Part shown: positions 3,256-34,117 of the stretch, piece by piece
How the letters are laid out: every line of letters starts with the position of its first letter
Numbering within the stretch: the first letter of the stretch is position 1
Source of the DNA: Euprymna scolopes
Taxonomy: Eukaryota
Strand: one strand, 5' to 3'
Assembly (NCBI GenBank): GCA_053919585.1
Contig: CM132788.1
Length of the DNA: 64,000 bases
Made by a program: the position numbers and the translations under genes
Notes under the pieces: model-generated
Told to the model about the DNA's origin: nothing
Databases searched by the model: none
The model's input: the letters and a program-made list of their open reading frames with translations, nothing else

Positions 3256-3457
3256 NNNNNNNNNNNNNNNNNNNNNNNNNNNNNNNNNNNNNNNNNNNNN
3301 NNNNNNNNNNNNNNNNNNNNNNNNNNNNNNNNNNNNNNNNNNNNNNNNNNNNNNNNNNNNNNNNNNNNNNNNNNNNNNNNNNNNNNNNNNNNNNNNNNNN
3401 NNNNNNNNNNNNNNNNNNNNNNNNNNNNNNNNNNNNNNNNNNNNNNNNNNNNNNNNN
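3256..3457. other. assembly gap (N run)
   Basis: Run of N. Other gaps: 12307-12444, 41475-41650, 43341-43471. Confidence 0.99.
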
Positions 3458-18081: not shown

Positions 18082-18372
18082 GTATACTGCACAATCACGT
18101 CGACACGCCGGTTCTAGTCAGATAACCGAAGTTAAGTAACGTTGAGCTTGTCCAGTACTAGAGGAGTGACCAGTTAGGAAGGCGAGGTGCTGTATGTATC
18201 GCGAGGTAAAATACCAGGTTGAGAAACTGGCGCGGTTTATCCTACTCTCGAGTGTAGATGGGACTCTCTTAAACCGTGGAAGGCAACCCATCTAGTGATT
18301 GTATCACGATAAAAATTTCCTTGGTAGCCCTGGCGAATCAGCTACCGACAATATTTTAATTACACTACACAC
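18082..18372 (+). mobile_element. 5S rRNA-derived SINE-like element (SINE3 type), copy A
   Basis: 18082-18196 aligns by eye to animal 5S rRNA (CCGGTTCTAGTCAGATAACCGAAGTTAAGTAACGTTGAGC..AGTACT..GTGACC..GGTGCTGTA), followed by a ~165-bp non-5S body and a CACTACACAC tail. Confidence 0.75.
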
Positions 18373-23711: not shown

Positions 23712-23751
<40 letters not shown>

Positions 23752-23826
23752 CATATACATATATATATACATATATATAATATATATATATATATATATA
23801 GTAATTTATAAAATATATATGGCGAT

Positions 23827-23880
23827 TAAGCTACACTGAATATTCTGCGTTTCATCCAACTATAGGATTCGTCAGGCTTA
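23827..23880 (-). ncRNA. type I hammerhead ribozyme in a PLE pseudo-LTR
   Basis: Minus strand: UAAGC-CUGACGA-AUCC(uauaguu)GGAU-GAAA-CGC(agaauauuca)GU-GUA-GCUUA. Stem I UAAGC/GCUUA, stem II AUCC/GGAU, stem III ACGC/GUGU, intact CUGANGA and GAAA boxes, GUA cleavage triplet. Confidence 0.85.
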
Positions 23881-24736
23881 TGCGCGAATTCTGTCTTTGC
23901 TTCTTGTTTTTATACATGTTGAGGATTACTAGTTGCCCAATCAGCTTTCTAGTATCCACCGCGCCCCTTCCTACCAGCCAATGGGCATGCATTTTATCAA
24001 ACAAAGGATCTGTTTTAGAGCTAGGTTAGTGGTTTTAGGTGGCCGTTCTCCTTTTTTTATTTTTTTATTTTTTATATATACATATAAATATACCTATGTG
24101 TACACAATAATGCACACATATACACATATATATATATATATATACCCACACATATGCGTGTGATCGTTTATGTATATTCATGTTTATTTAATTTATTTAT
24201 TTGTTTGTTTTCTATTGTTATTGTTAGTTTTAAAGCTATTTTGTATCGCTATCCTAGAGTGAGTTTTATTTTGTGAACACAGTTGGTTGCTATTTCCCGC
24301 CTACAGTTTAATAGATTTTGAGGTTCTTTAAAGTACAGGATAGAGAATTTTTCATGGAGGCATAATTTATATGGGTCGTCTTAATGTCTGCATGTGGTAG
24401 CTTGTCTTATTATTTTCAATTCTACTGCCGGCGAATGTCCGCTTTCTTTGAGTTCCCAGTATTTATTCGCTAGTGTTGTTTTTATACGGTGTTTTTTTTA
24501 TTTTTGAATGTGCTTTTGTGGTCATAGTATCGGGTTTTGAAATCTAAGGAAGTCATTCCTATGTAATATTTCTTGTTATTCGGGTTTTCTTTTGCAAATA
24601 TTGTTGCTTGATAGACTACGCTTTTTGTTAGACATTTGTTTTGGACTGGGCAAAATGTGCGGTGTCTACAATTGCATTTATCTTGTTCGTTATTAGTATT
24701 TTTATTTATGGTATGGTTGTACTTGTCCGGGGTTGG

Positions 24737-24740
<4 letters not shown>

Positions 24741-24802
<62 letters not shown>
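24741..24802. repeat. (ATT)n microsatellite expanded inside the PLE ORF linker
   Basis: Direct reading; it produces the poly-Ile and poly-Leu ORFs in the track. Confidence 0.95.
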
Positions 24803-25301
24803 TCTGCTAGTGTTGTTTTTATTTCTGTCCTTGTGTCTACTTTTTTATTGTTTATTTTGTTGTTGTTTACATTGTTTTCATTTAGTATTTTGTTATTATG
24901 TGCCTTAATTATCATCTCTAAATTTTCGCAACAACTGTAAGATAACTTCAAGGTATTTTTATTGAAGATTTTGTGTAAGGGGTTGGTTGCGGGAAAGTGT
25001 TTTTCAATAAGATCTAGAAATTTCTTGCCAAGTTTTGTTTTTAACATTTGATTTTATGGGGCCGTATACCAAATTATAGTTTTTTTCTTCTGGTTTTTCT
25101 TTTATTATAATTGTTGGTGTTTTGTTGTTTATATATGATTTCGATATTTTTGTATCCACTATTTTTTAGGGATGTATCGTAAATATTGGATGACCTGTTA
25201 AATGCATTTTCATCGCTTGAGTTATTTTGAAGTAAATACTTAAAGTTTACGCATAAATCTATACTTTCGTATAGTAAATTTATGTGAATAAATGAAATAG
25301 T

Positions 25302-25346
<45 letters not shown>

Positions 25347-25515
25347 TACTAGAGTGGATGAAACGCGGAATATTCAGTGTGGCTTAATCGCCACATATAT
25401 TTTATAACTTACTAACTAGCTCTACCTACGTAGTGAGCACTTTTGAAGTAAATACTTAAAGTTTATGCATAAATTTATACTTTCGTATATTAATTTTATG
25501 TGAGTAAATGAAGTA

Positions 25516-25560
<45 letters not shown>

Positions 25561-29253: not shown

Positions 29254-29330
29254 TAAATGACAGTTCATTTTTCTAAATAAATTGTTCTTATTAACACATT
29301 TTTTCCAATAAAATATTTTTATATTTGTTT
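28190..29330 (+). repeat. ~450-bp direct repeat units upstream of the Helitron ORF
   Basis: 28190-28620 and 28660-29060 are homologous. (TA)n-TTAAATGACAGTT(A/C)ATTTTT occurs at ~28590, 29034 and 29252. A related segment recurs at ~34920-35030. Confidence 0.75.
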
Positions 29331-29544
29331 CTAAAAGTGTGCCTTTGGTTTCCAACTTTCAATTTTGGATCGTGCGTTTTTTATTTCATGTTCAGGCGAT
29401 TCACTTTTTTTAGGTAATCGTGTTGATGGTTTATTTGGAGCTGACGATTACGGTCATCTTGGATTTGGTTCACCGACGTTGGTCAAATTATTTTTTTTTT
29501 TTGCGGACAAAGAATTATTTTTTACGCTTATCAGACTTATAACC

Positions 29545-32500
29545 ATTTCCCGTCGCAGTTTTTTTAATTTTCGCTCACCGTGGTTGTTTACCTTCAATAA
29601 GGACGAACAAAGCAGGCAGCGAAGACAAGCAGCCAGAGAACTACAAAATATGATGCGGAATCAGTCCATAGTGGATGAAAGACAAGCCCAACGAAATAGA
29701 AACAGAGAACAAATGCGAATAACAAAAAGTCAAATGAGCGAGGAGGAGAGAAATGCATATAATAATCGTAGTAGAGAAATAATGCAGAGAAGAATGACTC
29801 AAATAAATGAAGAAGAAAGAGAATTGCATAACACTCAATGAAGAGAACGGTTGCGAACAAGAAGATATGCAATGGACGAAGAAGAAAGACAAGAGCAACG
29901 AAGAATCAACAGACAGTACATCAGAGTTAGAAGAAATTACATGACTGAAGGAGAACGACTGATGAACCTTGAAAATAGATGAACTAGAAATAACATAGCA
30001 AGAAATAATGCAAGTGGTGTTCAATTTTCAAATCCTGATAGATTCTTAATTGACCCAATGAATGTTATTTGTTAACACTACCATGCTCTCCGATTCCAGG
30101 TAGAGTCTCTGAATTGCTGTCATAATAGAAAAGTTTCACTTGGGCCCATGCCTGAATACCCGGTCATTCTAAGGGAATTGTTTGAAGGAAATGACAGGGA
30201 TTCAACCAACTTTAGAAGAAACATTAAGGAGTATGACTCCTCCTTTGTCTTGCTTCGATCGTCGCTGCAGTGAAGCCACGCCCAGGACATGGTCCATATT
30301 GTTTTCGATTGCAAGGACAAGTATATCATTATGCAAGAAATTTACATCCAAATGAAAATGAAGAAAGAAAATATGAACATCTCTATATAATAAAGACAAA
30401 CGAAGCATCAAATCTGAGGTTAAATGCTACTCAGAATTCTGATTGCTTATATTCAGTGTTCGAAAAATATCTCAAGCAGTGGTTGATACTTCTAATGTAG
30501 GGGCATATAAAAACATGAGAACTGTCGAACTTTAAGAGCAACAGAGGGGTCCATTACAAACTGTTCCCCCCAGAAAAATAAGAATGCAGTTTATTGCCGG
30601 GTTCATGCGAGGAAATATAATAATCCAACACATGATGAAGTTGCAGAAAAATTTGTCGGTGATAATGGAACGCCTCCTGTCCATCGCGGCATTATAGTGT
30701 ACACAGAAGGACAACAGAGGCAGAGGATATCTTACCTCTCCTGCCATCTTGCCGCAATGATTTACCCTCTTCTCTTTCCACATGGTGAATTTGGCTGGCA
30801 TATAAAAATTCCTCATGTAGAAAATAGGCAAACTAGAGTTCGTAACAAGGTTTTCATGCAGAAATATTATGCATATAATCGAGAGATAAGAGGCGGCTTT
30901 AGTCCAATAAACAGTGGTGGAAAACTATTTCAGCAATGTATAATTGATGCTTATGTTAAAGTAGAAGGTTGTCGTTTGATATTCATTGCAGAAAACCAAG
31001 AACAACTAAGAGTTGCAATGTATTCTGGCTTGATGAATCACCTTGCTAAAAGTAATGAAATTGAAGATCCCGGAATACCTGTCATTTAATTATCATCCTT
31101 CACAAGGAGCCCACGAAATATGCAACAATGCTATGAAGACGCAATGACAATAGTTTGCAAATATGGAAGGCCTGATTTATTCATAGCATATACTTGCAAT
31201 CCAAAATGCCTAGAAGTAACCAAAACTTACAGCCGCATGAAACTGCACAGAACTGACCTAATTTGTTGGCACAAGTTTTAAAACAACATCTCAATGAATT
31301 AATGATTGGCATAAAGGACAGACATGCACTTGCGGTACCTATTTCTGCGATACATGTAATTGCACTTCACAAACGAGTTCTCCCCCATTATTATATGCTA
31401 ATCCTGCTGCGTCCAGAAGATAAAATTACAACTAAGAAACAAATTGATAATATTGTTTCAGCTGAATTACCATCAGAACATGATTCAGAATTGAGACAAT
31501 TAGTAGAACAAACTCATGACTCATGGATCCTGCGGTACATTTAATCCCAACTCAATCTGTGTGGAAAACGGAGAGTGTCAGAAAAAATGTCCTATGTTGT
31601 GTCCGGAGGAGACTATTACAAATGTTTCTGGATACCCTCTATACAGACGCAGAAATTATGGAGATTATGTTAGAGTTGGTGTCCATGAGGGTGACCGCAT
31701 GTTTGTAGTACCATATAATAAATATTTACTCATAAAATATGGTGCTTACATTAATGTAGAAGTGTGTATCTGGGTAAAAAAGTGTGAAATATTTATCAAA
31801 TATGTCTATAAAGGACATGATTGCGCAATGATGGAAATGAATATAAATAACAAAGGACCTAATGAACGTGAATATAATGAAATTAAGCAATACATTTCGT
31901 GTAGATATGTATCCCCGCCTTAAGCATTTTGGCGTTTATCAGAATATAAAATGGATTGGCAGACGCACATAGTTTATCGACTGGCGCTCCATTTACCTGA
32001 TGAACAACAAGTTTCTTATAGGCCAGGTGAACAAAGACAGGTTTCTGCCCGTGCAGAAGGCTGAGACACGCAATTAACTTCATGGTTAAAACTTAACCAA
32101 AGTGACGTCGATGCAAGAGCCCATCTTTATATTGATATCCCTGAATATTCTGTATTCAACAAGCAAAGTAAAATCTGGTCCAGAAGAAAACGTCACCGCC
32201 AGATTATAACAAGAATGTACTCTGCCAGTCCTAGAAATGCTGAGAAATTCCATTTAAGGATGCTTCTGCTTCATGTACCAGGTGCAACTTCTTTTCAGGA
32301 CTTGAAAACTGTAGGAGGTGAAGAATTGCCGACATTTAAGGATGCCTGTATTCGATTAGAACTGCTTGAAGATGACAACGAACTACAAATGCCTTTGAGT
32401 GAGGCATCTGTATATCAAATGCCACGGCAGCTTCTTAACATGTTTGTTATGTGTTGATGTGTTTATTCACTACACCACAAAATGCTTTACACTTATGGAA

Positions 32501-34117
32501 TGATAACAAATACCTTATGATAGAGGGTATTTTACGCCAATATGATAATAATATTGCAGACAATATCGCTCTGCATCACATAAACGTGATTATGAATGAA
32601 AATGGCATGGATTCTTCGATGCATGGTCTGCCAGAACCAATCAATTGTTTCCTGTCATTCAATATGTGGAAAAAATTAAAGAAGTTAATCCTTAAGAACT
32701 AAATGTTGAGCAAAGAAATTTTTTTGATAGTGTCATTAACGCTCCAAGTGCATTAGATAGAGGATTAGCGACTAAACACCGACTGTTTTATCTGGATGGA
32801 CCCGGCGATTCTGGTAAAATATTCTATTTAACATGATTCATGATTACCTGATGGCTCAAAATATGGTTGTGTACTTCTGGTTGGACAGGTATTGCAGCAA
32901 CTTTATTGAAAAATGGAAAAAACGTTTCACAGTATCTTCAAATTTCCTTTTCCTTTGACTGAGACATTTCCATGCTATATTCCATATAATTCTGACCAAG
33001 CCAATATTCTCAGGCAAGTGAAAGTTTTCATTATTGACGAGGTGTCAATGATACCTCAATATGCATTGAATGCCATACATAATTGTTTACAGGATATTAT
33101 GAACAATAATATACTATTTTGTGGTAAAGTCATCATATTAGGAGGAGACTTAAGGCAAATTCTGCCTGTGGTTCCTAGAGCTCCACCTGCTGCAGTATTG
33201 GATGAATGCTTAAAAAAGTCTCAAATGCGGCACCATTTTCATCAGCTCAGGCTGTCTCAGAATATCAGGACTAATGAAAACGAACAAGTTTTCTCACAAT
33301 GGCTCTTACAAATTGGAAATGGTCGAGTTCATAGTTCACTTGATAATGTTTCTCATGACACGATCGGTATTCCAGAACAATGTGTACGCAATGAATCTTT
33401 AGTGTCAGACATATTTGATAATTGTACACAGGATTAAATGAGAAGTAGATTTATATTCCCCCCAAATGCAGATTTTTTGGAAGTTAATGAAGATATTTTA
33501 CGAAGATTAGCAACTGAGAGCAAAACATATTTAAGTACAGATTCAGTATCAGCAGGCAATTAAATGTAATCTAATAATTATCCGATAGTATTCATAAATT
33601 CACTTACACCTTCGGGGATGCCTCCTCATCGTCTTAATTTCAAAGTTTGATCTATGATTATGCTGTTTCGCAACGTGTCATTAACGCAAGGACTATGCAT
33701 GGGAATAAGTTTTGAAGTATTGGAGATTCATGACCACAGTATTTTAGCTTCAATCATAAGTGGCCTAATGCTCAGGCACGAGTTTTAATTCCAATAATTA
33801 AACTTAATCCCAGTGACGCAAATATTGCATTTGTTCTGCGCAGGACTCAATTTCCCGTCCGCCTATCATATTCAATGGCCATTAATACAGCTCAAGGACA
33901 GACATTCGATAAAGTTGGGATCTGCCTACCACAACCTTACTTTACTCATGGACAACTATATGTAGCCTTCTCACGAGCAAGGTCTATAAACAGTGTAAAA
34001 GTGCAAAGTTGTCCTCAGAATAAATCTACTCATGGCCAGAGAATAGGAACAACCTTCACTAGAAATATTGTCTGTAAAGAAGTTTTGAAAATGATTTCAT
34101 GTATTTCTCATTTTTGA
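29545..34117 (+). pseudogene. Helitron RepHel transposase pseudogene (STPR repeats, Zn finger, HUH Rep, PIF1-family helicase)
   Basis: Motifs in order through stops and frameshifts: 23-aa repeats; C*HYHA..E..NCC; YPLLFPHGEFGW; GGKLFQQCIIDAY; GRPDLFIAYTCNP; VIALHKRVLPHYYML (HUH); HGSCG..NPNS.C; KYVYKGHD; FHLRMLLLHVPGATSFQDLKTV; LDGPGDSGK (Walker A); IIDEVSM; GGDLRQILPV; QFPVRL..INTAQGQT; FTHGQLYVAFSR. Confidence 0.95.

Follow-up and report, generated by a model that had tools for sequence, protein, structure and literature searches.

Hammerhead ribozymes in Hydra-clade Penelope-like elements (PLEs) are already known, and one more is ordinary by itself; the question at stake is what they do. 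Their function has been called unclear (PMC8557442), in vivo evidence for them has been stated as lacking (PMC4209133) and no RNA ends at the cut were found in a study of a related element (PMC11167929). We analysed a 64,000-nt stretch of the Euprymna scolopes genome (hereafter the window), in which a preliminary description had noticed an apparently intact hammerhead beside a dead reading frame and suggested that the ribozyme might still cut any minus-strand transcript crossing it. Does this hammerhead act, and if so on which RNA? Its family offers tens of thousands of young copies with countable ends, and a ribozyme predicted to fold as a monomer, together with a hairpin by each reverse-transcription start, gives exact positions at which questions of start, cleavage, circle formation and protein binding can be put.

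A hammerhead in a truncated Hydra-clade element

On the minus strand, positions 23880 to 23827 read, 5′ to 3′, as stem I UAAGC, the core CUGACGA, a 4-bp stem II (AUCC/GGAU) with a 7-nt loop, GAA, stem III ACGC/GUGU, A17 and the closing GCUUA. This is a type I hammerhead (23827..23880, minus strand) with a 5-bp stem I and an 18-nt helix III, in which the CUGANGA core, GAAA and an NUH triplet are all present; the intact core and three stems that the preliminary description reported can be read directly, and the minimum-energy structure of the monomer is the hammerhead itself, with stem I open and three helices (pair probabilities of 0.57–0.98 when the RNA starts at −54). A predicted extension of stem I (a 2×2 internal loop, then 3 bp) widens the motif to 23822..23885. 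Stem III encloses a 10-nt segment holding the 8-nt palindrome GAAUAUUC that had been pointed out there (23838..23845, minus strand), which is without subfamily-level change. The predicted cut follows GUA, between 23832 and 23831 on the minus strand, where the preliminary description had placed it, and head-to-head mini-insertions elsewhere in the genome join here. We number from this cut, with +1 = 23831 and −1 = 23832. The hammerhead is thus real, of type I and at this position.

General-purpose scores are silent on it. The folding energy is no better than that of shuffled sequences (z −0.27), a loose core pattern gave 35 uninformative matches at 7 places in the window, and an Rfam scan, the check first proposed, returned no hammerhead at the gathering score or among 24 matches up to E 10; the missed match is a limit of the model library, not of the definition of the hammerhead fold. 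The 10.1–11.1 pair is A-U at the locus rather than the canonical G-C, which is highly conserved in hammerheads (PMC4209133); since U is common at this pair in Hydra-clade hammerheads, the A-U pair lowers the expected rate and not membership. What speaks against chance is the position in a PLE pseudo-LTR, the conservation pattern across subfamilies and the strand bias in 78 metagenome loci encoding relatives, of which 40 carry a sense-strand hammerhead and 2 an antisense one.

The host copy is a 5′-truncated element whose main arm spans 1.43 kb (23799..25226, minus strand). Its reading frame, rightly called dead in the preliminary description, is a broken C-terminal remnant in four pieces with frame changes (24249..25226, minus strand) that retains the reverse transcriptase (RT) thumb region, a CxCx5C linker and a GIY-YIG-type nuclease with YIGMT. 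Element end 1 (+31 to +33; 23799..23801, minus strand), the putative first reverse-transcription start, abuts (TA)n, as does an inverted arm of about 80 nt (25225..25305, plus strand) that ends at element end 2 (+138 to +140); the flanking target is (TA)n-rich on the left (23712..23798) and (TA)n(GA)n on the right (25306..25345). Upstream of the hammerhead lie the putative transcription start zone (−54 to −52; 23883..23885, minus strand), which is the upstream edge of the commonest arm ends, a TATA box (23907..23914, minus strand) 31 nt above the G at −52, and a region of promoter-like motifs (23937..23982, minus strand) comprising what we take to be two reversed CCAAT-like pentamers (23937-23941 and 23978-23982) and a GC-box-like stretch (23959-23967). 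The copy is 99–100% identical to the 40 best-scored other matches (the best 40 of 1,173 candidates) and is therefore not special.

Several neighbouring features deserve mention. A separate short arm of a sister subfamily (25349..25520, plus strand) holds the 3′ half of a hammerhead and a tail, without CUGANGA, with GUG at the cut triplet and with a GCUC…GAGCACU hairpin (25419..25441, plus strand); it is a second, independent arm in that microsatellite. An (AAT)n tract encoding poly-Asn (24735-24800, minus strand) recurs in family open reading frames (ORFs) at lengths that differ between copies, and many family frames break beside it. A 5S rRNA-like sequence (18082-18198, plus strand; 49.7 bits), single copy in the window and with several broken pairs, is possibly a pseudogene or a 5S-derived repeat, and a broken Helitron remnant (about 29300-33450, plus strand) has Helitron_like_N and PIF1 helicase matches in separate frames. 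No host gene was identified over the hammerhead site, the Pfam-named long ORFs being Helitron remnants only, and no host function is indicated at this one locus.

At least 61,387 copies cross the cut site, as counted with a 17-nt exact pattern across the cut in the 5.9-Gb genome; the arm sample used below was chosen by a −7 to +10 pattern alone and comprises the first 80 places listed, that is, 99 of the first 100 matches. Family copies encode RMRWRA, ADKT, YRDD, CNCRHRTLC, YIGMT, CKLC and CVH (RMRWRA at 35 and ADKT at 113 in copy L101; the last four in copy L047), and the clade is defined by a C-terminal nuclease, RW[K/R], DKT, CxCx5C, CxxC and CxH flanking the conserved E and N, and a (TA)n target (PMC8557442). 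By motifs, (TA)n target and a unit below about 3 kb, the family is a Hydra-clade PLE, in agreement with the preliminary assignment; the assignment is by motif, with published Hydra proteins compared by eye. The unit measures 2,840–2,994 nt (20 copies), and near-full copies run from pseudo-LTR and hammerhead through the tail, an AUG at +203 (202 nt after the predicted cut) and the ORF to a second hammerhead 2.84–2.99 kb after the first. Within the leader the order is TATA box, hammerhead, end 1, hairpin, end 2, hairpin, AUG. Insertions are of PLE type, with partial tandem and inverted pseudo-LTRs and a tail at one end. Not one of the 24 copies that include a start codon has an intact ORF (longest, 687 of about 770 amino acids), and Pfam gave no match on family ORFs. 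A non-LTR retrozyme, for which we looked for short non-coding tandem units with a hammerhead in each, was rejected: the single hammerhead here is tied to an ORF remnant, and where two occur on one strand the ORF lies between them and 2.9 kb separates them.

Metagenome contigs widely carry Hydra-type PLEs (598 stretches yielded 262 relatives); homologous proteins number 1,751, nearly all of them unnamed. In two copies (L035 and L046), substitutions private to one insertion are found in both its direct and its inverted arm, as would be expected had both arms been copied from one RNA or one donor.

Conservation of the ribozyme and of a downstream hairpin

Of the 99 arms, 71 span the motif with no more than 3 mismatches per block and were scored. 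Alleles common to at least 7 arms are confined to N7 (A in 33 arms, C in 29, G in 7), 10.1 (A in 51 and G in 20, either one opposite U), the flank of loop III (G in 34, A in 22, C in 14) and loop II. The nine scored core positions and the palindrome hold no such allele in these 71 arms, and the stems hold no compensatory changes within the family. Subfamily variation is thus restricted to positions that hammerheads tolerate, and the ribozyme is likely to be under selection in the family. Some copies carry internal deletions inside the hammerhead (for example, G000:C1:141355665-141355699), one of which cleanly removes loop III; these may be template skips over structured RNA.

Helix III with its loop measures 18 nt in the family against 8–10 nt in the 40 related loci, and at this length the monomer can fold. 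The preliminary description had stated that palindromic stem III loops permit dimeric folding. The predicted energy is indeed favourable (−36.4 kcal/mol for the palindromic dimer against −25.0 for two monomers), but a dimer is unnecessary, helix III being long enough for the monomer.

A second conserved structure lies within about 10 nt after each element end: GCUC, a short stem-loop, a 2-nt bulge and GAGCACU. In the 78 related loci the motif has 89 sense and 6 antisense matches, and 51 of 76 distinct cases have the inner stem, where 10.3 would be expected to. It stands 36–53 nt after the cut in 29 of the 40 hammerhead loci (further away in 2, unmatched in 9) and 37 nt after it in the E. scolopes family, and by eye 4 of the 6 novel Hydra sequences published in supplement S7 of PMC8557442 have it too. 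By these matches the GCUC…GAGCACU hairpin is clade-wide. Because PLE ends have been found to be internal reverse-transcription starts (PMC11167929), the hairpin likely positions the reverse transcriptase at each start. A literature search, mostly without subscription papers, turned up neither the hairpin nor arms that end at the cut. The telomerase template boundary offers a parallel for a hairpin that sets the start of reverse transcription a few bases away.

Joins, arm ends and RNA ends

Genome-wide, 342 head-to-head mini-insertions are joined at +1. In all 15 that we fetched, one arm ends at +140, and the other ends at +28 to +33 (14 of 15) or at +52. Joins at an AGCT palindrome 112 nt upstream number 7 per 18,055 read-through copies against 342 per 61,387 at the cut, an odds ratio of 14; this control is on the upstream side of the start zone, in a stretch with fewer arm ends of every kind. 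We counted by hand the first 50 listed of 469 close head-to-head joins: the arms overlap at the cut in 38 and meet bluntly there in 1, a TTAA palindrome is used in 6, and 5 fall elsewhere. On these counts the +1 joins were probably, although far from certainly, caused by cleavage by the ribozyme in vivo. Arms ending at the cut make up only about 1–3% (1,387 matches versus 61,387), so most templates would have been uncut or re-joined.

The excess at +1 is a possible trace of in vivo cleavage that is confounded by microhomology, since the cut lies inside a 4-nt palindrome, which alone could favour the join. It is quite conceivable that the hammerhead is real and selected and yet every template was uncut, so that the +1 joins record AGCT microhomology and no cleavage at all. 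Palindromes at inverted PLE junctions are already known (PMC3846280), RNA ends at the cut were found neither here nor in PMC11167929, and single-arm ends show no excess at the cut: with symmetric joins excluded, 23 of 84 fall at +1/−1 and 24 of 84 at +3/+4 (hand count, 16 rows dropped). A general single-arm excess, which we had considered because 33 of 85 arm ends lie at +1/−1 when symmetric joins are included (15 indel or variant rows dropped), was accordingly abandoned, the AT-rich neighbours being equal. Against microhomology as the whole account, the same palindrome upstream is used 14-fold less, TTAA serves 6 joins against 39 at the cut among the 50 listed, and one blunt join has both arms ending exactly at +1. 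Nor is the longer 8-nt palindrome of loop III used more: it accounts for 5 clear and 12 ambiguous joins among the first 50 of 787 listed, or about 80–270 by extrapolation from those 50, and may thus be nearly as common a joining point as the cut. Cleavage in a minority of parent RNAs remains our preferred reading of the +1 joins.

Long copies bear on what such cleavage would be for. Among 29 copies chosen by their ORF start, 23 reach −44 and 3 of these stop by −58, against 44 of 81 unselected arms (p 6e-4). We also picked 19 copies by hand for their long 5′ pseudo-LTRs and compared the two pseudo-LTRs within each: their distance is below the between-copy median in 17, equal to it in 1 and above it in 1. 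The pattern fits a circle produced by double hammerhead cleavage, as modelled in PMC4209133, and it also fits a template jump or read-through of tandem copies. The ribozyme might instead serve mainly in translation, with loss of the cap about 50 nt below it leading to silencing or to cap-independent translation. The hammerhead does belong to the 5′ leader, with the AUG 202 nt further on; in a plant retrozyme, the LTR hammerhead blocks translation of a reporter (PMC12029980) and hammerheads in the 5′ untranslated regions of RNA viruses promote cap-independent translation (PMC13725137). We consider a mainly translational role rather improbable: it leaves the read-through of the start zone by long copies unexplained, and it is in any case compatible with the replication reading and not exclusive of it.

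The start zone itself is defined by arm ends. The sample contains 81 arms that reach −44; 43 of them terminate between −44 and −55, and of the remaining 38 just one does so within the next 12 nt (p 1e-8). In 24 of 30 long arms the distance from a TATA box down to the G at −52 is 31 nt (25 nt in 1 and 32 nt in 1, with 4 unscored), and this spacing is kept across subfamilies that differ in length further upstream. In distinct related loci a TATA-like hexamer lies 34–46 nt above C3 in 12 of 31, against 12 of 201 control windows, the tested interval having been set with knowledge of the family spacing from C3 (39 nt). Transcription therefore likely starts at about −54 to −52 under a TATA promoter; a putative TATA and Inr have been described in a pseudo-LTR of the Adineta vaga PLE (PMC3846280).

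The edge of the arm ends is also the 5′ end of the extended stem I, where a GC-rich palindrome lies, and the commonest start-zone join is itself palindromic. The arms might then end where reverse transcriptase stalled or primed itself at the border of the hammerhead fold, a reading consistent with the self-priming on an antisense template proposed in PMC3846280 and with the lack of a capped end at the start zone in the RNA reads. A stall or self-priming at the fold is nonetheless unlikely, given a TATA spacing fixed across subfamilies and enriched in distant relatives, the many arms that end in the start zone without a palindromic join and the few long copies that stop in that sequence. A stalling reverse transcriptase would be expected to stop as it enters a helix and not once it is past it, whereas these ends fall after the helix has been left.

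A transcript that reads into the hammerhead from upstream is a different substrate from one that starts at −54. At the locus the predicted fold probability is 0.35 from a −54 start and 0.010 with 115 nt of upstream sequence; over 40 copies the medians are 0.352 and 0.014, and the value with upstream context is the lower in 40 of 40. Shuffled upstream sequence gives a median of 0.012 against 0.014 for the natural one, which is lower in 19 of 40. An on/off switch evolved in the upstream pseudo-LTR, which we had entertained, is thereby rejected; shuffled sequence lowers the fold as much, and the pattern points to weak folding. The subfamily to which L170 and L193 belong has G both at 10.1 and at the loop III flank; its predicted fold probability is much lower, at 0.006 in both copies scored, and activity may thus differ between subfamilies.

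We also compared RNA reads from 4 runs, 2 of them raw single-cell reads sampled at 4–6%. Two single-cell runs cover a family copy, cut site included, on both strands. The read ends at the cut that the preliminary description had suggested looking for did not appear: among the ends listed for a family copy in the 4 runs, none pile up at the cut or in the start zone. Adapter-bearing ends in that copy (L100) lie at 3419, 3410 and 3275, with the cut at 3424 and the start zone at 3370–3374; 5 and 14 nt upstream of the cut, plus one antisense site, they look like adapter mispriming. That the locus hammerhead efficiently cuts any minus-strand transcript crossing it, the strongest of the earlier suggestions, is very improbable despite its intact core and stems and although equilibrium folding ignores proteins and co-transcriptional effects, for the predicted fold drops from 0.35 to about 0.01 in read-through RNA, reads span the site on both strands without ends, and at least 61,387 inserted copies were copied through an intact site. 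On this modelling the copy at the locus is unlikely to cut host transcripts efficiently in passing.

A proposed replication model and the closest relatives of the family

With moderate confidence, we read the site as a hammerhead belonging to the 3′ pseudo-LTR of an abundant Hydra-clade PLE, here a dead copy cut short at its 5′ end; in the parents of the copies seen today it likely stood at the RNA start, weak and partly active. A TATA promoter would start the element RNA at about −54 to −52. The element protein would bind the hairpins and, primed by nicked (TA)n DNA, begin reverse transcription immediately 5′ of each; two cDNAs would then run off the RNA 5′ end and join head to head, usually at the start site (uncut RNA) and for about 1–3% of arms at the cut (cleaved RNA). 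Cleavage at both pseudo-LTRs followed by re-joining would give a 2.9-kb circle, which would explain near-full-length copies that read through the start site. The copy at the locus keeps promoter and ribozyme and would yield at most a short RNA into the flanking (TA)n. Quite tentatively, the insertions could together be a fossil map of PLE replication, recording run-off from capped RNA, a minority of run-off at the cut, long copies derived from circles and starts set by hairpins. If true, this would amount to evidence of in vivo cleavage by an animal PLE hammerhead, and it would name the RNA element recognized by a telomerase-related reverse transcriptase. To what is known of PLEs the family adds a longer helix III and a conserved hairpin, together with a start that is likely TATA-driven and a trace that may be one of cleavage.

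The closest known systems are the published Hydra-clade PLEs (PMC8557442), which share with the family the nuclease, the RT and linker motifs, the (TA)n target, the sense type I hammerhead within the pseudo-LTR, and insertions, both tandem and inverted, that carry a tail. In 26 of 26 published rows loop III has 1–3 nt, whereas the family has a 10-nt segment with an 8-nt palindrome, and the tail, described as 30–40 bp for PLEs, is about 107 nt here; in the parts of that source consulted, neither the hairpin nor arms ending at the start or the cut are described. The Poseidon PLE PAc of Anolis (PMC11167929) likewise has two internal reverse-transcription starts that define its tail, an AT-rich target and a hammerhead near the ORF start, and uncut RNA was its main substrate in vitro, a pattern matched by the family. 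Its AUG lies inside the hammerhead, which is without helix III and cuts only with protein; in the family the AUG is 202 nt downstream, the predicted fold is complete and each reverse-transcription start is followed by the same hairpin.

Minimal PLE hammerheads (PMC4209133) are also of type I, stand in both pseudo-LTRs and carry a palindromic loop III, and double cleavage and a circle were proposed for them; the metazoan forms described there need dimers and cut poorly, whereas the helix III of the family resembles in length that of the fungal monomer forms. The Penelope elements of A. vaga (PMC3846280) and Drosophila virilis (PMC2377424) share head-to-head pseudo-LTRs with palindromic junctions. 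In A. vaga these junctions were read as self-priming on antisense RNA, whereas the positions in the family point to an upstream TATA promoter, and the D. virilis promoter is internal and TATA-less. The plant LTR retrozyme NbRZ1 (PMC12029980) resembles the family in having a promoter in its terminal repeat, a start just upstream of the hammerhead and a hammerhead that removes the RNA 5′ end, as cleavage is predicted to do here; NbRZ1 is a non-autonomous LTR element whose type III hammerhead has been shown to cleave efficiently, whereas the family is a PLE of autonomous type in which cleavage is predicted.
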